This document shows positions 6,940 through 61,847 of a stretch of 64,000 nucleotides of DNA, piece by piece. The notes beneath the pieces are model-generated. The model was not told the origin of the DNA, made no database searches, and worked only from the letters and a program-made list of their open reading frames with translations. Within the stretch, counting starts at the first letter, position 1, and the number at the start of each line of letters is the position of its first letter. The position numbers and the translations under genes are program-made. Source of the DNA: Minisyncoccota bacterium (GTDB taxonomy: Bacteria; Patescibacteriota; Minisyncoccia; Phycocordibacterales; UBA9973); contig JBAYLA010000001.1 in the NCBI GenBank assembly GCA_041664285.1, positions 68,889 to 132,888 of the forward strand. Direction: 5' to 3'.

Positions 6940-7935
6940 ATGGATTTAGAAGGATTTGGAAAAACAACTAAAGAAAAAGTACATAGCACGCCAGAAAAAT
7001 TTAAAACCAAAGAGGGTGACATTACTTTAAAATGGAATATTTTTAAACCTGATAATTTTAAAAAAGGAGAAAACATAAAGCCTGACCGAGTAGTAATATT
7101 CTTGCCAGGAGTTGGTCTCGATTCTGATTCTTCTTCGGTGGTAGAGTCGGCTCAAGATTTTGCCAATGCATCAAAAACAATTTCTTATTCTATTTCTACT
7201 CGTACAGATAATCCTAAAATTGAAAATTCTCAAGCAGTTCAAGCAGAGGCAATTCGTCAATTTATGATTAGTCATAATTTGCAAGAAGTTACTCTGGTTG
7301 GTAATTCACAAGGCGCTAATAAGGCAATAGAACTAGCTGCTATTTTAGAGAAAGAAGAAGGTGGAGAAGCTAAGATTCAGGTTCGTGGGTTGATTTTGAC
7401 TAATCCTGCTGGTTTATATGAGCAAGATTCTAAAACAATGAAAACAAATTTTACTAAAGATGCCTTAATCAACACCCCTCAAAGTTGGCTAAAGAAGGGG
7501 GGTTCTCTTAGTGCTGTGGGTAGAACCATTCGCGTAGGGGCTGATATAGGTGTTTATATAGCAAAAGAAATAGTTACTGCTCCAGGTGAATTTACTGATA
7601 GGGCTAATAGAGAGGCAAAAGAAGCATCTATGCTTAATAACAATACCGCAGAAATTAAAGCACCAGTTGTTGTAGTTTTGGGTGCTGACGATCTTGTTTT
7701 TGATTCTAAAAAAATTATTCCTGATGATTCACATGGTCTTCATGAAGACCATGATAAAAGATTAGCTTTACAAAATAAAAGAAATGAAGCATTAAAAAAA
7801 ATATTTCCAAATAGTAGTAATATAAAAGTTTTAGAGGCTACTAAATCCTCCACTCATGGATTGCATTATGCCAGAAGTAGAACAGTGGCCAATGCAAGTA
7901 TTGAAATGTTAAAAAGAATGTCTGAGATTAAATAA
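6940..7935 (+). CDS. alpha/beta-hydrolase-like protein
   Basis: VTLVGNSQGANKAIE contains a GxSxG nucleophile elbow. Otherwise unassigned. Confidence 0.4.
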   Translation: MDLEGFGKTTKEKVHSTPEKFKTKEGDITLKWNIFKPDNFKKGENIKPDRVVIFLPGVGLDSDSSSVVESAQDFANASKTISYSISTRTDNPKIENSQAVQAEAIRQFMISHNLQEVTLVGNSQGANKAIELAAILEKEEGGEAKIQVRGLILTNPAGLYEQDSKTMKTNFTKDALINTPQSWLKKGGSLSAVGRTIRVGADIGVYIAKEIVTAPGEFTDRANREAKEASMLNNNTAEIKAPVVVVLGADDLVFDSKKIIPDDSHGLHEDHDKRLALQNKRNEALKKIFPNSSNIKVLEATKSSTHGLHYARSRTVANASIEMLKRMSEIK

Positions 7936-7959: not shown

Positions 7960-8571
7960 ATGTTAGGGTTTACAAAAAAGGAATTGGTGTTAATGAAGAA
8001 ATTAAATACACCAGCCAAGGTGCAGGACTTTTTGAACAAACTTCAGTTCAATTTCGAAGAAAAAGGGGAAACATTGAAATCTCCGATTTTAGCTCTAAAG
8101 GCACGACAAGCCCATTGTTTTGAAGGAGCGCTTCTGGGGGCTTATATATTGTCTCTGCAAGGTTTTACCCCCTATTTGATGCATTTAAAGGCCACTAAAG
8201 AGGATTTTGACCATGTGGTCGCTCCTTTTAAAGTAGAGAAATATTGGGGTGCTTTATCTAAGACTAATCATGCGGTTTTGCGTTACCGTGAGCCTATTTA
8301 TAGAAATATTCGCGAACTTGCTATGTCTTATTTTCATGAATATTTTTTAAATAATGGGGAAAAAACATTGAGACAGTATTCTGCACTTCTTAATTTAAAT
8401 ACTTTGAAAAAAAATTGGGGCATATCACCAAAAGATCTTTGGTCTATAGATAAAAAATTAGATAAAATACAACATTATAATATCGTGCCACAATCTTATA
8501 TCAAGAAACTCCGAAAATCAGACAAGGTAGAAATAAAAGCAGGGGAGATTACAGAGTTTAAAAAATACTAA
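7960..8571 (+). CDS. hypothetical protein
   Basis: 203-aa ORF whose 3' end overlaps the convergent gene by 14 nt. Confidence 0.35.
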   Translation: MLGFTKKELVLMKKLNTPAKVQDFLNKLQFNFEEKGETLKSPILALKARQAHCFEGALLGAYILSLQGFTPYLMHLKATKEDFDHVVAPFKVEKYWGALSKTNHAVLRYREPIYRNIRELAMSYFHEYFLNNGEKTLRQYSALLNLNTLKKNWGISPKDLWSIDKKLDKIQHYNIVPQSYIKKLRKSDKVEIKAGEITEFKKY

Positions 8572-9376
8572 AAATTTTATCCCAAAATCTTCTCCACCAA
8601 GTATTTTTTGTAGTTTCATTTTGTGCGGGAACAGAAGGAACAGAATTTGCAATTGATGTAGTATTTTTGTCTTTAATTTTGTTTATTTTTTTAGGTTGCT
8701 CTTTAGGGTTTGCAGGCAAGATATCTCCCCCTTCTTCTTCAAAAGTTGTATTTGAAGAAGAAGGGGGAGTAAGTGTTGGATAAACAAGCAAAGGGGAAAG
8801 AATAAAAGAAGTACATGGTTGGCCAGTGGTTATGCTAAATTTTTGTCCTTGTTCGCAGATAGTATTTAATATTATATATCCGCTACCTCCACTATTACTG
8901 TGGGTAGAGGGGGTTTCTGGCTCTGGTTCTGGTATTTTGTTTTCATCTCCAAAATACAAAACAACATTTTCTCCTCCAGATAAAATTTCCGAATCCATTC
9001 CTACGCTTGGGCTAACATTATTTACTTTGTATTGCCAATTATCACACAAATCGGATCCAGAGACGTTGATACATTTCAAATAAAAAGCTCCAAACATATC
9101 ATAATAAATCAAATTAGAGATATTAAAATCTCCACTCAAAGTGTCGGCTGTATTTACTATCGAGAGCACACTGTCGGCCTTTGTATCGTGAGGACTTCCG
9201 CTTGAGTCATTTATACTGATGGTACCAGCTCCGAGCAAGGGTATATTTCCGGAATAAACAACATCACCGTTATTTTTTACAGTTAAATTTACATTTATTC
9301 CATCAGCTAGAGCAAACTCACTTCCTCCTGTTAGTAATATTAAAGCAATCCAAACACTCATTAAAATTTTTTTCAT
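8558..9376 (-). CDS. secreted DUF4430-like (transcobalamin / intrinsic-factor beta-domain-like) protein with Pro/Ser/Thr linker
   Basis: Signal peptide. NLTVKNNGDVVYSG ... DNWQYKVNNVSPSVGMDSEILSGGENVVLYFG matches the DUF4430 pattern (W.Y.VNG...G....l.dGD.v.f.y). The C-terminal half is PEPEPETPS-rich. Confidence 0.5.
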   Translation of the reverse strand: MKKILMSVWIALILLTGGSEFALADGINVNLTVKNNGDVVYSGNIPLLGAGTISINDSSGSPHDTKADSVLSIVNTADTLSGDFNISNLIYYDMFGAFYLKCINVSGSDLCDNWQYKVNNVSPSVGMDSEILSGGENVVLYFGDENKIPEPEPETPSTHSNSGGSGYIILNTICEQGQKFSITTGQPCTSFILSPLLVYPTLTPPSSSNTTFEEEGGDILPANPKEQPKKINKIKDKNTTSIANSVPSVPAQNETTKNTWWRRFWDKIFSIF

Positions 9377-9389
9377 ATTTTAATTTAAA

Positions 9390-9580
9390 AATAAAAAAAC
9401 TCCTACCGAGAGGAGTCGACAAATCAAGACATTAAGACTTGATAATTCCTGCTCGGGACAAATAAAATGATTGGTATTCGGACTTGTTCCTCCAATTTTA
9501 GTTGGAAGGACTTACCGTAGCGGCACTGTACTGGAATTCCTGCCTGCGTAGGCGGGTCACCAGTTTCCCCAATCAATTCT
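9390..9580 (-). ncRNA. candidate cobalamin riboswitch with intrinsic terminator (expression platform) leading into the 8558..9376 gene
   Basis: GC-rich island in an AT-rich intergenic region. The minus-strand RNA reads GGGGAAACUGGUGA...GGAAUUCCAG...GUGCCGCUACGGUAAGUCC...AAGUCCGAAUACC. The closest fit to the remembered consensus is CCGCUACUGUGAG plus the terminal AGUCAGGAAACCUGCC. It ends with the terminator GACUCCUCUCGGUAGGAGUUUUUUU about 15 nt before the ATG. Confidence 0.5.
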
Positions 9581-9592
9581 TATAATTTTCAA

Positions 9593-10084
9593 ATGAACTC
9601 TCTTAGTATATACTTACCTCATATTATGTCAAAGGAAGATGTGGATACTAAAAAAATAGCCAGAGAGAAGCTGGTAAAAATAATGGTTTTTGGAACTTTT
9701 GACGGATTGCATCCTGGGCATATTAATTTTTTCCAACAGGCAAAAAATCTTTCTAAAAGTTCATTTTTAATTGTTTCAATTGCTAGAGATAAAAATATAA
9801 TAAAAATTAAAGGGAAAAAATCAACACTTTCTGAAAACGAAAGATTTAATTTAGTAAAACAAAATAAGTTTATAGATAAGGTTGTTCTGGGAGGGAAGGT
9901 CAAATATTTACCCCATATTATAAAAGAAAAACCAGATATTATTGCCCTTGGTTATGATCAAAAAGATTATGTTGAAAATTTAAAAAAAGATCTTAAAAAA
10001 AATGATATTTTAATAAAAATTATACGTTTAAAGCCTTATAAGCAAAAAATTTTCAAAAATAGCTTACTAAAATCAAAAAAATAA
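9593..10084 (+). CDS. cytidylyltransferase-like nucleotidyltransferase (FAD synthetase N-domain / TagD-like)
   Basis: GTFDGLHPGHINFF is the (H/T)xGH nucleotidyltransferase motif. Confidence 0.6.
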   Translation: MNSLSIYLPHIMSKEDVDTKKIAREKLVKIMVFGTFDGLHPGHINFFQQAKNLSKSSFLIVSIARDKNIIKIKGKKSTLSENERFNLVKQNKFIDKVVLGGKVKYLPHIIKEKPDIIALGYDQKDYVENLKKDLKKNDILIKIIRLKPYKQKIFKNSLLKSKK

Positions 10085-46346: not shown

Positions 46347-47039
46347 CTAAGACGTGACGTCTTCACTCTGTTTATAATCGCCTGGCCATATATCTATTTG
46401 ATTTATTGGTAGTAATCGCAAGAAAGCTTTCCCTGCAAAAAATTCTCTTTTTACTGGTCCCCAAGCCCTAGAATCAGAACTACCACTTCTGTTGTCACCC
46501 ATTACAAAATATTCATCACTTTTTAGCACAATGTGTATATCGTTGTTTGCAACATTTTTTACAAAGGGTTGTTCTAGTTTGAAACCTTCAGGATGTGCAG
46601 AATTTGTGATAGTTACATCATTACCTTTGATATCAACTGTTTCGTTTGGTAAACCAATAACACGTTTTATAAAAAACCTTCCAGGATCAAAAAATCTCAA
46701 TAAGAAATTTCTTTTAGGATTATTTTTAGGATCGCCTGGATATTGAAATACCACAACATCATCTCTTTGTGGATTACCTAATTCATAAGATAGCTCATCT
46801 ACTATTATATAATCTCCGTTTTCAAAAGTGGGAATCATAGAAGGACCTGAAACTATAAATGGATCTGCGATTAGCCAACGGATAAGAAAAACTATAATTA
46901 AAGCTATAAATGCAAAACGTGCAAGCTCCCAAAATGATTGGGATTTAGTCTTTATTTGTTCCATATTTATAATAATAGCACATAATGTCCTTGACAATAT
47001 AGAATAATTTGTTTTGTAATATATAAAAAATATATACAA
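46347..47039 (-). CDS. lepB: signal peptidase I
   Basis: VSGPSMIPTF (Ser box), VMGDNRSGSSDSR (box E) and GKAF. Confidence 0.85.
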   Translation of the reverse strand: MYIFFIYYKTNYSILSRTLCAIIINMEQIKTKSQSFWELARFAFIALIIVFLIRWLIADPFIVSGPSMIPTFENGDYIIVDELSYELGNPQRDDVVVFQYPGDPKNNPKRNFLLRFFDPGRFFIKRVIGLPNETVDIKGNDVTITNSAHPEGFKLEQPFVKNVANNDIHIVLKSDEYFVMGDNRSGSSDSRAWGPVKREFFAGKAFLRLLPINQIDIWPGDYKQSEDVTS

Positions 47040-47052
47040 TTAATTTTTTTTT

Positions 47053-47122
47053 GGTACAGAATTTTTGAAGCTTAAAAATTCTTGAAGTTCTCGGCTCGTC
47101 AGCCTCGAAACCCCGCAAAAAG
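47053..47122. repeat. about 70-nt conserved element, copy 1 (second copy at 61638..61708)
   Basis: ggtacagaatttttgaagcttaaaaattcttgaagttctcggctcgtcagcctcgaaaccccgcaaaaag. About 85% identical to copy 2 after two single-base indels. Confidence 0.5.
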
Positions 47123-47156
47123 TTATTGTATATATTTTTTAATTCTGTGTTATTAT

Positions 47157-54435: not shown

Positions 54436-55434
54436 ATGTTAAATCCAAAATTAAAATTAAATCCAAAAATTTTCAACAATGACGTGGAGCAAGCCCCGAT
54501 CCGTAAAGGTTTCGGACAAGGTTTAGTGGAGGCGGGGGAAATAGATTCTAATGTTGTCGGGCTTAGTGCTGATTTAACAGAGAGCACACAGATGAATTTA
54601 TTTGCGGATAAATTTAGAGAGAGATTTGTGCAAGTCGGAGTGGCTGAACAAAATTTAGTAACCGTGGCTTCAGGGATGGCAGCAATGGGGAAGATTCCTT
54701 TTTGTTCTTCTTATGCGATGTTCTCACCAGGGAGAAATTGGGAGCAAATTAGGACAACTATATCTTACAATAACCAGAAAGTCGTAATGGCGGGTTCACA
54801 TTCAGGGGTTTCTGTTGGTCCCGATGGGGGATCACATCAAGCCTTAGAAGATATTGCTTTAATGCGAGTGATGCCAAATATGGATGTTGTTTCTCCCTGC
54901 GATGCTATTGAAGCAAAAAAAGCAACTTTAGCTGTTGCTAAAACAAGTAATCCTGCGTATTTACGGCTAGTTCGCGAGAAAACTCCTATCATTACTACAG
55001 AAGAAACTCCTTTTGCCTTAGGTAAAGCCGAAATTTATTGGATGCCAGATGTTGGACTTGCCCAAGTGGGGATAATTGTTACTGGTGGGTTGATGCATCG
55101 TGCATTGCTTGCTGCGAAAGAATTGGAAGCGGAGGGCATAAAAACAAAAGTGATGAATTTATCTTCTATTAAACCAATGGACAAAGATGCTGTGATTGCT
55201 CTCGCCAAAGAATGTAAAAAAATTGTAACTGTTGAAGAACACCAGATTGCTGGTGGAATGGGTTCGGCTGTGGCAGAAGTTTTTGCAGCGAACTATCCAA
55301 TCATGATAGAATTTGTCGGAGTTCAAGATAAATTTGGTCAATCTGGCACCCCAAACGAACTGATTGAACATTATGGTATGGGTAAAAATTCTATTAAAGA
55401 AGCTGTGAAGAAAGTGTTAAAAAGGAAAATCTAA
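54436..55434 (+). CDS. transketolase, C-terminal (pyrimidine-binding) subunit
   Basis: Pyr and C-terminal domains, with FVQVGVAEQNLV and GSHSGVSVGPDGGSHQ. Confidence 0.85.
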   Translation: MLNPKLKLNPKIFNNDVEQAPIRKGFGQGLVEAGEIDSNVVGLSADLTESTQMNLFADKFRERFVQVGVAEQNLVTVASGMAAMGKIPFCSSYAMFSPGRNWEQIRTTISYNNQKVVMAGSHSGVSVGPDGGSHQALEDIALMRVMPNMDVVSPCDAIEAKKATLAVAKTSNPAYLRLVREKTPIITTEETPFALGKAEIYWMPDVGLAQVGIIVTGGLMHRALLAAKELEAEGIKTKVMNLSSIKPMDKDAVIALAKECKKIVTVEEHQIAGGMGSAVAEVFAANYPIMIEFVGVQDKFGQSGTPNELIEHYGMGKNSIKEAVKKVLKRKI

Positions 55435-59786: not shown

Positions 59787-61613
59787 ATGGATTTAAAACA
59801 CATTAGAAATTTTTCAATCATTGCTCATATAGACCATGGTAAAAGTACTTTGGCGGATAGAATGCTTGAGATTACCCACACAATAGAAACTCGTAAAATG
59901 CGAGATCAAGTATTGGATTCTATGGACCTTGAACGTGAAAGAGGAATTACCATTAAAATGCAACCTGTAAGAATGGAATACGAATTTAATGGAGAAAAAT
60001 ATATTTTAAATCTTATCGATACTCCGGGGCATATAGACTTTTCTTATGAGGTTTCTCGAGCTTTAAAGGCTGTAGAAGGCTCTATTTTGCTTGTAGACTC
60101 AACTCAGGGGGTACAAGCACAGACGCTTACAACACTCGCTATGGCACGCAGTAGTGGTCTTAAAATCATTCCTGTGCTATCTAAGATCGATTCTCCTTTG
60201 GCTAGGGTGGAAGAAATAAAAGAAGAAGTTGTAAATCTTTTGAATTGTGATCCAGATGAAATTTTACTAGTTTCTGGGCGAACAGGTGAAGGAGTATCTA
60301 AACTTTTACAGGAAGTTATAAAACAAGTACCAGAACCAAAAGAAACATGCTCACAAAAGGAAAATGAAATGGGTCAAGGCACTAGTAGCTTACGTGCATT
60401 AGTATTTGATTTTAAATATTCAAATCATCGAGGAGTAATAGTTTTTGTGCGGGTGTTTGATGGGAAAGTTAGGAAGGGCGATAATTTAGTTTTTGCAGTT
60501 TCTGGCGAGAAATTCATTGCTCTTGAAGTGGGAACTTTTTCTCCAGAAGAAACTTCTCGCGACTTCCTTTCCTCTGGAGAGACAGGGTATATCGTGACTG
60601 GTATCAAGAAACCTGGTATTGCCTCGGTCGGAGATACTATCACCATGTTCAAAAATCCATTACCAGCTTTTCCAGGTTATATGCAACCGATGCCAGTAGT
60701 CTGGGCTTCTGTTTTTCCAGAAGATGCAGATGATTTTGCGGAATTAAAACTTGCTTTAGGAAAATTAAAACTTTCCGACTCAGCTTTTTCTTATGAAGAA
60801 GAATCAAGTGGATCTTTAGGTCGGGGATTTAGGTGTGGGTTTTTAGGAATGCTTCATTTAGAAATTATTACCGAGAGGTTGAAGCGCGAATTTAATTTGG
60901 AATTGGTTATTACCACACCTTCCATCACTTATGAGGTTTTATTAAAAAATGGGAAAAAAGAAAAAGTTTACTCTCCATTTCATTTCCCTGATGATGGTCT
61001 AATAGAGAATGTTTTTGAGCCTTGGGTAAACTTGAAGATTATTACTCCTGTTCAATATGTAGGGAACGTTATGCAACTTCTTTTTGATCACGAGGGAGAG
61101 GTGGGTGATACAGAGAATTTTGGAGATAGTCGTTCTACTATTTCTGTGAAAATGCCCCTTCGAGAGCTGATGCGAAATTTTTTCGATGAATTGAAAAGTG
61201 TTTCTTCTGGTTATGCTTCTATCTCTTATGAAATAGGGGAATTACGGGAGGCCAATGTTACCAGACTTGATTTGCTAGTAGCGGATGAAGTGGTGCCGGC
61301 TTTTTCTCGGGTGGTGGCTAAAAAAAGAGCCGAAGTTGAAGCAGAGAATGCAGTTTTAAAATTGGACGAATTATTACCGAGACAAATGTTCACTTTAAAA
61401 ATCCAAGGTCGTGCACTTGGACGTATTATTTCTTCTCGCACGAAATCCGGTATGAAAAAGGATGTGACTCAGCATATGTACGGAGGTGACATCACCCGTA
61501 AAATGAAACTTCGAGAAAAGCAGAAAAAAGGAAAGAAAAAGATGAAGGAAAGAGGTAGAGTAAATATTCCTCAAGATGTATTTTTGAAAATGATGCGTGC
61601 TGGAGATAAATAG
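59787..61613 (+). CDS. lepA: elongation factor 4
   Basis: IRNFSIIAHIDHGKSTLADR, DTPGHIDF and the LepA-specific C-terminal domain. Confidence 0.9.
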   Translation: MDLKHIRNFSIIAHIDHGKSTLADRMLEITHTIETRKMRDQVLDSMDLERERGITIKMQPVRMEYEFNGEKYILNLIDTPGHIDFSYEVSRALKAVEGSILLVDSTQGVQAQTLTTLAMARSSGLKIIPVLSKIDSPLARVEEIKEEVVNLLNCDPDEILLVSGRTGEGVSKLLQEVIKQVPEPKETCSQKENEMGQGTSSLRALVFDFKYSNHRGVIVFVRVFDGKVRKGDNLVFAVSGEKFIALEVGTFSPEETSRDFLSSGETGYIVTGIKKPGIASVGDTITMFKNPLPAFPGYMQPMPVVWASVFPEDADDFAELKLALGKLKLSDSAFSYEEESSGSLGRGFRCGFLGMLHLEIITERLKREFNLELVITTPSITYEVLLKNGKKEKVYSPFHFPDDGLIENVFEPWVNLKIITPVQYVGNVMQLLFDHEGEVGDTENFGDSRSTISVKMPLRELMRNFFDELKSVSSGYASISYEIGELREANVTRLDLLVADEVVPAFSRVVAKKRAEVEAENAVLKLDELLPRQMFTLKIQGRALGRIISSRTKSGMKKDVTQHMYGGDITRKMKLREKQKKGKKKMKERGRVNIPQDVFLKMMRAGDK

Positions 61614-61620
61614 GGTAAAT

Positions 61621-61719
61621 AAAAAAACACCTTTTTAGGGTACAGATTTTTTGAAGCTTAAAAAATCCTGAAGTTTGCTCGCCGACGCTCGCAAAACCCC
61701 CAAAAAAGGTGTTTTTTTA
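61621..61719. repeat. copy 2 of the ~70-nt element, here bounded by perfect 16-nt inverted repeats
   Basis: aaaaaaacaccttttt ... aaaaaaggtgttttttt enclose gggtacagattttttgaagcttaaaaaatcctgaagtttgctcgccgacgctcgcaaaaccccc. Confidence 0.55.
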
Positions 61720-61847
61720 TTTACCTAAAAATCGGAGAGTAAAGCAAGATCATACTGATAATAATTAGCACACTGACTACTGCCCAAGTGATTTGTATTT
61801 TCTTTTGATGTTTTTTATTAAAAAGCATACAATAAGTATAACACAAA

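Follow-up and report, generated by a model that had tools for sequence, protein, structure and literature searches.

Results

Two matching hairpin elements lie beside lepA and between lepB and pth

The window, as we call the whole 64-kb stretch of DNA that was analysed, carries two copies of an element built around a conserved core of 62 nt, both with the core sequence reading along the + strand (Table 1). Copy A follows lepA, with a 5' edge one base past the lepA stop codon (61611-61613), and the order of Pfam domains at this place is LepA, element, DivIC-family gene. The gap that holds copy B runs from the lepB start (46964, - strand) to the pth start (47157, + strand), and Pfam here gives signal peptidase S26 (-), element and peptidyl-tRNA hydrolase (+). 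These assignments agree with the gene context proposed by the first-pass annotation, namely lepA and the next gene for one copy and the lepB-pth divergent region for the other. For the DivIC-family protein downstream of copy A no record was found, and an identical LepA was found on a single contig.

The first-pass annotation had described the two copies as about 85% identical over 70 nt. The resemblance is real: a 37-nt block, GGTACAGAnTTTTTGAAGCTTAAAAAnTCnTGAAGTT, differs between copies A and B only at its three n positions, and such a match arose in none of 100 shuffles and is not expected by chance. Compared base by base, the cores are identical at 47/62 positions and at 41/44 outside the 18-nt GC hairpin, so that the earlier figure is about right for the conserved blocks. 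No third copy was detected by nhmmer in the 64-kb window. Copy A had also been described as bracketed by a 16-nt inverted repeat. The bracketing was confirmed but its length had been understated, the repeat (61614-61640 / 61699-61725) reaching 27 nt at 96% complementarity, and copy B was found to have an inverted repeat of its own that had been overlooked (47024-47048 / 47117-47141, 25 nt, 92% complementary). The two repeats are unrelated in sequence, and they are the longest within 120 nt in the whole window. Folding z-scores were -5.3 (+ strand) and -4.9 (- strand) for copy A and -4.1 and -4.0 for copy B. The only other match in the window to the lepA-side arm of copy A is its own partner arm, and the inner part of this arm is homologous to the arm at locus L071, with a compensatory C-G to T-A change. 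The idea that the arms are guides matching other loci was rejected, as those of both copies match nothing else in the window.

Table 1. Features of the two window copies, the empty site in the window, and loci of the wider superfamily (window coordinates count along the + strand; L numbers denote loci)
Feature	Coordinates or loci	Strand	Basis or remark
Copy A, whole element (P1 arm, 62-nt core, P1 arm)	61614..61725	-	inverted repeat I1
Copy A, P1 arm on the lepA side, GGTAAATAAAAAAACACCTTTTTAG	61614..61638	.	copy-specific sequence
Copy A, conserved core; two hairpins and P1 form a three-way junction	61639..61700	-	alignment, covariation
Copy A, AU-rich hairpin P3, stem CAGATTTTTT/AAAAAATCCTG	61643..61670	-	loop GAAGCTT at 61653-61659
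Copy A, GC-rich hairpin P2, minus strand GGGGUUUU-GC-[GA]-GC-GUCG-GC-[GA]-GC-AAACUUC	61670..61700	-	covarying pairs
Copy A, P1 arm on the DivIC side, CAAAAAAGGTGTTTTTTTATTTACC	61701..61725	.	inverted repeat; no other window match
Copy B, whole element	47024..47141	-	inverted repeat I2
Copy B, P1 arm, TAAAAAATATATACAATTAATTTTT	47024..47048	.	inverted repeat
Copy B, conserved core	47053..47114	-	P3 47057-47084; P2 47084-47114
Copy B, P1 arm, AAAAAGTTATTGTATATATTTTTTA	47117..47141	.	inverted repeat
Empty site; transketolase-C gene (+) and PfkB-kinase gene (-) converge with a 4-nt overlap	55431..55434	.	synteny
Superfamily scaffold loci	L017:179-268, L012:457-546, L056:5901-5990, many of L072-L191
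Tgt-like hosts of in-frame copies	L072, L152, L154, L168		conserved motifs only
TsaD-like hosts of in-frame copies	L076, L095, L147, L149		conserved motifs only
UvrD/PcrA-type helicase-like hosts of in-frame copies	L098, L143, L150, L158, L166, L167, L170		conserved motifs only
RecG-like hosts of in-frame copies	L099, L104, L128, L184		conserved motifs only
IleRS-like hosts of in-frame copies	L100, L114, L186		conserved motifs only

Several other features were seen in these sequences. A promoter-like pair on the + strand, TTGACA-18 nt-TGTAAT (window 46991-47020), was recognised by eye and is absent from the list of the promoter scan; a start from it would fall at about the first base of the copy B stem, giving the pth mRNA a 5'-terminal hairpin. 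Window positions 8725-8769, within a called minus-strand ORF (8558..9376), form a 19-bp inverted repeat without mismatches, CTCCCCCTTCTTCTTCAAA / TTTGAAGAAGAAGGGGGAG, around a loop of 7 nt and with no conserved core inside. A cobalamin riboswitch aptamer lies at window 9452-9618 (-) (Rfam RF00174, 36.2 bits against a gathering threshold of 31.5), and an AdoCbl-II riboswitch at L016 5928-6015 (-) (Rfam RF01689, 43.1 bits); locus L016 carries two hairpin elements as well.

The element belongs to a family spread through Patescibacteria

The pattern GGTACAGA-N4-10-GAAGCTT-N4-10-TGAAGTT was scanned, exact, against one genome per species. It returned 69 loci, of which 64 hold a full core (65 copies) and the other five are chance matches. 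The 34 assemblies with the core are all Patescibacteria (Nomurabacteria, Paceibacterota, Vogelbacteria and Minisyncoccia), and one of them, MAG JAPLXU01, has at least 14 copies. The set used below (n=74) comprises 67 exact-pattern copies from the 34 genomes and seven variants found by nhmmer in the same loci.

We then considered whether the element matches anything already described. Rfam 15 at gathering thresholds, applied to the window and seven loci, gave nothing at the element, self-cleaving ribozymes included, and at E values up to 10 only generic long-hairpin miRNA models appeared (23-33 bits against gathering thresholds of 83-140). A self-cleaving ribozyme had been considered because CUGACGAG on the minus strand of some copies recalls the hammerhead; this was ruled out, since the stem II/GAAA arrangement is lacking, the motif is missing in other subtypes and no Rfam ribozyme was found. 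The tandem G.A loop lacks the 3-nt bulge of a kink-turn, and ARAGORN and Rfam detect just three real tRNAs, which disposes of a tRNA-like element. The element had no match in viral contigs, phage records or plasmid records, and a phage or plasmid origin was ruled out by this absence. No description was found in the literature searched, though one may exist elsewhere. The family is widespread in Patescibacteria and apparently undescribed.

Covariation supports a three-way junction that folds on the minus strand

The element is about 110-120 nt long and consists of the 62-nt core inside a copy-specific long stem, P1. This stem is present in every copy, with a median length of 24 bp, a median of 30 predicted pairs and a peak of contiguous helix at 23-26 bp. 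Its innermost 7-18 bp are only semi-conserved, and the outer arms are unique in each of the 74 copies, differing even among the 14 copies of one genome. Within the core, P3 is AU-rich and has a 7-nt loop reading AAGCUUC on the folding strand, and P2 is the GC-rich hairpin, interrupted by a tandem G.A internal loop and capped by a loop of 4 nt. In one core copy (L001, minus strand, ~7650-7744) an AT-rich insertion of 23 nt lengthens the GC hairpin, which indicates that the hairpin tip tolerates extra sequence.

The substitutions in the GC centre, which had looked pairwise in the two window copies, are genuine compensatory changes in an alignment of 71 distinct copies (A2). Among its 36 pairs, 23 change on both sides, and the covariation score was 0.26, compared with 0.10 in shuffles (0/500 reaching the observed value) and 0.05-0.12 in slid-partner controls. 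RNAalifold independently predicts the same three helices. In P2, covarying columns are 22-39 (CG 36/UA 28/GC 7), 27-34 (CG 34/GC 33) and 28-33 (UA 36/CG 31), alongside invariant G.U pairs at 16-44 and 17-43. P3 is 97.5% paired and shows compensatory changes from UA to CG/AU at columns 51-69, 52-68 and 56-64.

All signals point to the window minus strand, opposite to the strand first read, as the folding strand. Core stability is higher on that strand in 74/74 copies, and that of the whole element in 70/74. Mismatches in P1 would be G.U pairs in 39 cases on the minus strand and in 9 on the other strand, a P3 base pair (columns 47-72) alternates on the minus strand as GU 55/AU 10/GC 6, and columns 18-42 in P2 as GC 67/GU 4. 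Between co-directional genes whose mRNA carries the other strand, the wobble bias is 16:2, and for superfamily copies translated on the other strand it is 15:4. Because the bias persists irrespective of the strand of the flanking mRNA, the folding strand is a property of the element and not of host transcription; in most co-directional contexts it is antisense to the genes. A mutational strand bias was rejected as the source of the wobble asymmetry, since 4-fold sites (sense) show T>A and slightly C>G, which predicts no such bias.

Copies abut stop codons and show no upstream promoter signal

All 74 copies of the 62-nt core type are intergenic. The adjacent stop codon sits at the P1 base, its distance peaking at -4 to +2; the element makes up the entire intergenic region of convergent gene pairs, and the next start codon of co-directional pairs is 10-20 nt beyond P1. 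Relative to the + (first-read) strand, the contexts are ++ 26, +- 25, -- 8 and -+ 7. Neighbours are diverse housekeeping genes, for example those for LepA, RecA, FtsZ, SmpB, L7/L12 and TIM, and no link to one gene family was seen among the flanking ORFs. No transposase, integrase, reverse transcriptase or recombinase was found among the ~136 flanking ORFs, nor any Y1-transposase domain or RAYT-type gene among the neighbours of copies.

Pairs of -35/-10 boxes showed no positional peak upstream of the copies on either strand, and the scan of the window was at chance level; an own promoter was ruled out by this flat upstream profile. No unpaired T-run follows P1 (the mean number of T in 8 nt is 2.6, no higher than background), and a consensus scan found no intrinsic terminator at copy A or B. 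The stem base is T-rich (at least 6 T in 8) in ~40% of copies, symmetrically on both strands and more rarely in divergent contexts. In 67/74 copies every one of the three frames is closed by the core when it is read on the + strand; on the other strand only one frame is closed, in 65/74. GC skew follows the gene strand. Directly outside one stem arm, L035 (~1470-1500) has three tandem copies of ACGTA and L059 has fewer, which suggests slippage at the hairpin base.

Whole elements come and go at orthologous sites, and cores are inverted or exchanged

Loci from different genomes were compared by synteny. Downstream of lepA, the window and L071 share the 112-nt unit, which is missing at locus L070, where LepA is 92% identical. 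In all, the complete unit of 112-122 bp is absent from L070, L016, L019, L069 and window 55431, and copies of relatives are missing in L016, L019/L042, L069 and L005. At L048 and L066, an element copy separates the orthologues of the gene pair that overlaps at window 55431. Both convergent genes at L048 end in the same 12 nt, AGAAAAGTATAG, because the element arms reach into coding sequence. In principle, any apparent gain may instead reflect loss from the other lineage.

Pairing in P1 is kept through compensatory substitutions and compensated indels, as seen between L048 and L066 and between the window and L071. In 3 of ~12 orthologous groups the core alone is reversed, between arms and flanks that are retained: L009 against L031/L053 (base by base), L013 against L028, and L030/L034 against L047/L050. 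Inversion was observed only between species, and the near-identical metagenome contig pairs L072/L151, L154/L164 and L139/L146 have the same orientation. Cores are also exchanged, L023 holding a different core where L007 and L028 hold the 62-nt core, and upper P2 differs between orthologous copies. Over 16 orthologous pairs, mean identity was 97% for the core outside upper P2 (partly inflated by ascertainment, as 22 core bases are fixed in the search pattern), 75% for flanking DNA and 73.5% for the P1 arms. A block of ~1 kb, in which a gene and a hairpin element differ as one unit, is present in L028 and L013 and absent from L023 (L028 5679-6711 against L023 1350-1353).

Direct repeats across the stem ends scored 6.72/10 in real pairings and 6.86 in shuffled pairings, so target-site duplications, being not above the control, were rejected as a general feature. 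Comparison of filled with empty sites gave possible 9-12-bp repeats in window/L070 and L039/L069 and none in three others. At L054 a canonical terminator, AAAAATCCCTCagacGAGGGATTTTT, stands in place of the element of L026. Insertion into pre-existing terminator hairpins fits as an origin of the arms for L026/L054 only; as a general origin it fails, with no hairpin at the empty sites L016, L019, L069, L070 and window 55431.

Related cores share one hairpin and occur inside genes

Copy B includes in its P2 the hairpin GGCTCGTCAGCC, which is common to a wider superfamily: other cores in the same genomes share it, each enclosed by a long stem of its own sequence and again with the corresponding strand folding better. 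Scanning metagenomes with CTCGGCTCGTCAGCCTGCG yielded at least 120 loci of the same architecture. Among the matches listed, contigs with a named source were mostly groundwater assemblies, and at least three further core types have the same layout. A semi-conserved outer scaffold, (GAATTAC)GAAACTCTTTCTTGGCATAC...GTACGCCTGCGACGAGTTT(CGTAATTC), includes an internal loop; the core at its tip varies with the locus and can be the 62-nt core or either of two other core types. This arrangement suggests a modular exchange of cores.

In at least 24 cases a superfamily copy is part of a long ORF that runs through it in frame; 13 of these copies are read on one strand and 11 on the opposite one. These insertions add ~30-40 residues, an example of the predicted peptide across one being GSLSP..GALPLGSSACETP. 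The host proteins, named from conserved motifs only, are grouped in Table 1. One helicase site has a core type in both orientations, plus a second core type. Among the matches listed, one insertion possibly breaks the frame.

The layout reverses that of known palindromic repeats

Rickettsia palindromic elements (RPEs) are non-coding palindromic repeats of ~100-150 bp that form several families in a reduced-genome lineage, with no transposase known, and that are dispersed in intergenic DNA and also in frame in unrelated housekeeping genes (PMC10969869). The present elements resemble them in size, palindromic form, division into several families, lack of a known transposase, occurrence in reduced genomes and presence both between and within genes, the last only for the sister cores that share GGCTCGTCAGCC. 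They differ in that the hairpin centre is conserved and the arms are copy-specific, in that the core is near-invariant across genomes rather than decaying, and in that 74/74 copies of the 62-nt core are intergenic. The likeness drawn here is one of kind. REP/BIME and REPIN elements, like ours, are multi-copy palindromes outside genes that form hairpins; they occur at 3' ends, in operons and in the gaps of convergent gene pairs, and are believed to be processed as folded single strands. REPINs, however, have conserved REP arms and a variable loop, whereas here the centre is conserved and the arms vary, and no RAYT-type gene was found near any copy among the flanking ORFs.

Hairpin MITEs such as the Neisseria Correia/NEMIS elements, ERIC and SPRITE are small, non-autonomous, intergenic and co-transcribed with their neighbours (PMC10969869). 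They can serve as RNase III sites or resemble terminators in their structure, and Correia elements are RNase III-processed (PMC10969869). Our elements are similarly small, non-coding, multi-copy and present or absent at orthologous sites. The terminal inverted repeats of MITEs, which are transposase binding sites, are conserved between copies, whereas the outer arms here are unique, and MITEs are flanked by target-site duplications, whereas flanking direct repeats are not enriched here.

Like attC sites, the elements are hairpins at gene 3' ends in which structure is conserved rather than sequence. Long attC sites can have branched tops. Their one specific folded strand is antisense to the upstream gene, as is the case here in most co-directional contexts. 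The boxes of attC are conserved at the base with a variable centre, which is the reverse of the layout seen here, and our copies have scattered housekeeping neighbours rather than cassette arrays, with no integrase among the flanking ORFs. Core sites of attC (RYYYAAC / GTTRRRY) were sought by eye, and one subfamily shows AAC...GTT, located in its inner stem rather than at the stem base. In contrast to invertons, the inverted repeats are not conserved, there is no recombinase nearby and the element contains no promoter-like signal. The IS200/IS605-derived palindrome-associated element has two similar subterminal hairpins and uses the lagging-strand template, usually the sense strand of genes; the two hairpins of the present element are dissimilar, and its folding strand is mostly antisense to co-directional genes. 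A report on Nematomorpha mitochondrial genes describes long inverted repeats that overlap coding sequence, with both arms encoding protein (PMC6649704). The gene ends at L048 and the in-frame superfamily copies recall this arrangement as described there, although the repeats in that account are organellar, much longer and without a conserved structured core.

Discussion

The above findings define a non-coding element family with a conserved three-way junction, strong covariation, a position between stop codon and next gene, turnover at orthologous sites and in-frame relatives. The first-pass annotation had offered two candidates, either a structured small RNA whose flanks would be a bidirectional terminator or else a miniature inverted-repeat element. 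It had also named a search for further copies and a covariation check; these have now brought 74 copies in 34 species-level Paceibacteria genomes and a score well above the shuffles, with all three helices covarying. The repeat element is the closer of the two to the evidence. The family is multi-copy, dispersed, non-coding and palindromic and is gained or lost as a whole unit, but the arms are copy-specific and flanking direct repeats are no commoner than in shuffled controls, which is not what the miniature inverted-repeat label implies. The structured-RNA candidate was right about a fold with strong covariation in all three helices and mistaken about its strand, the fold being on the minus strand; as a free-standing sRNA gene it finds no promoter signal on either side and has relatives inside coding sequences. 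Abutment on stop codons and the canonical terminator at one orthologous site lend weak support to the bidirectional terminator, against which stand the missing unpaired T-run after the stem, a T-rich stem base in just ~40% of copies and the position of copy B in a divergent promoter region.

We lean towards regarding the elements as a non-coding palindromic repeat family specific to Paceibacteria (Patescibacteria/CPR), selfish in behaviour and recognised by structure. What fits best is a palindromic repeat comparable in behaviour to RPEs, REPs and hairpin MITEs with the layout reversed, the structured centre being invariant and the arms free. Such a repeat might spread or be homogenised by way of its minus strand, single-stranded and folded, a putative enzyme reading the conserved core and not the arms. 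The arms would drift at the rate of flanking DNA, kept paired by selection and/or hairpin-templated repair, and the hairpin would be tolerated at gene ends, where it may have been co-opted as a terminator, stabiliser or RNase III site. Several points weigh against a selfish repeat. Conservation of the core far above that of flanking coding DNA is expected of a host-selected element; the placement of 74/74 copies in intergenic DNA at stop codons and the orientation bias (26 '++' against 8 '--') also fit a function at transcript ends; and there is no transposase, integrase or reverse transcriptase nearby, no target-site duplication signal and no conserved termini.

The main rival, which we consider rather unlikely, is a host cis-acting RNA at transcript ends, acting as a (bidirectional) terminator, a 3' exonuclease block or an RNase III site. 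The core would then bind a host protein and the repeats would be functional modules, not selfish DNA. The stop codon at the stem base, the next start 10-20 nt after the stem in co-directional pairs and the filling of the whole gap between convergent genes are consistent with this explanation, as are the canonical terminator of L054 where L026 has an element, the T-rich stem base of ~40% of copies, rarer in divergent contexts, and the 97% identity of the core against 75% for the flanks at orthologous sites; a stem of ~24 bp also has the size cut by RNase III. However, the best-folding, wobble-bearing strand is mostly antisense to the flanking co-directional mRNA, no unpaired U-tail follows the stem and copy B occupies a region of divergent promoters. 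The element is missing from many orthologous sites, among them the overlapping convergent genes at 55431, core orientation flips between orthologous sites, and sister families sit inside coding sequences. Small-RNA genes, with the core as mature product and the long stem as a processing stem like those around rRNAs, are a most improbable explanation. rRNAs are flanked by RNase III processing stems, which the long variable flanking helices resemble, and the invariant core and strong structural covariation would suit an RNA product, but promoters are not enriched upstream on either strand, and the element fills the gap with no room for one. The strand that folds is, as a rule, antisense to the one transcript that is plausible, orientation flips, relatives are translated inside genes and no Rfam family matches.

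A purely DNA-level explanation, which we hold to be quite improbable, has the inverted repeats allow the 62-bp core to flip, as an invertible module or protein-binding site in which the AAGCTT-centred palindromic arm is a duplex binding site and orientation matters to neighbouring genes. In-place inversion of the core in 3 of ~12 orthologous groups speaks for it, as do the orientation bias in co-directional contexts and the difference in frame closure between the strands (three frames in 67/74 on the + strand, one frame in 65/74 on the other). About 25 bp is also roughly the minimum length for homologous recombination, and the stem is near that length. Yet the GU/AU/GC alternation and the wobble-only tolerance indicate single-strand pairing, not duplex recognition, and the inverted repeats, not being conserved, are unreadable for a site-specific invertase. 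Recombinase genes are not found nearby, nor promoter-like motifs in or beside the core, and the near-identical contig pairs (L072/L151, L154/L164 and L139/L146) keep the same orientation. We also think it unlikely, though less so, that the elements are a new structure-recognised mobile module, in which an enzyme would read the three-way-junction core on one folded strand (DNA or RNA). Cores would be inserted, inverted and swapped at hairpin tips, in intergenic DNA and in genes alike, and the arms would be rebuilt from, or co-evolve with, local sequence. A module of this type would explain the strand-specific wobble bias that is independent of host transcription and the pairing of unique arms with an invariant core, and also the in-place inversion and the different cores on one outer scaffold.

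Whichever explanation holds, the element occurs in dozens of copies in the tiny, tightly packed genomes of Patescibacteria, and its centre is better conserved than the housekeeping genes of these bacteria. The elements affect annotation, through false ORF extensions, apparent protein insertions and hairpins that may break assemblies, and they provide a sequence tag for a Patescibacteria clade in metagenomes. If they are host modules, they would represent a lineage-specific mode of ending or processing transcripts. If they are selfish, as we favour, the family would be a parallel to the Rickettsia palindromic elements in another reduced-genome lineage and a tractable case of structure-reading mobility.
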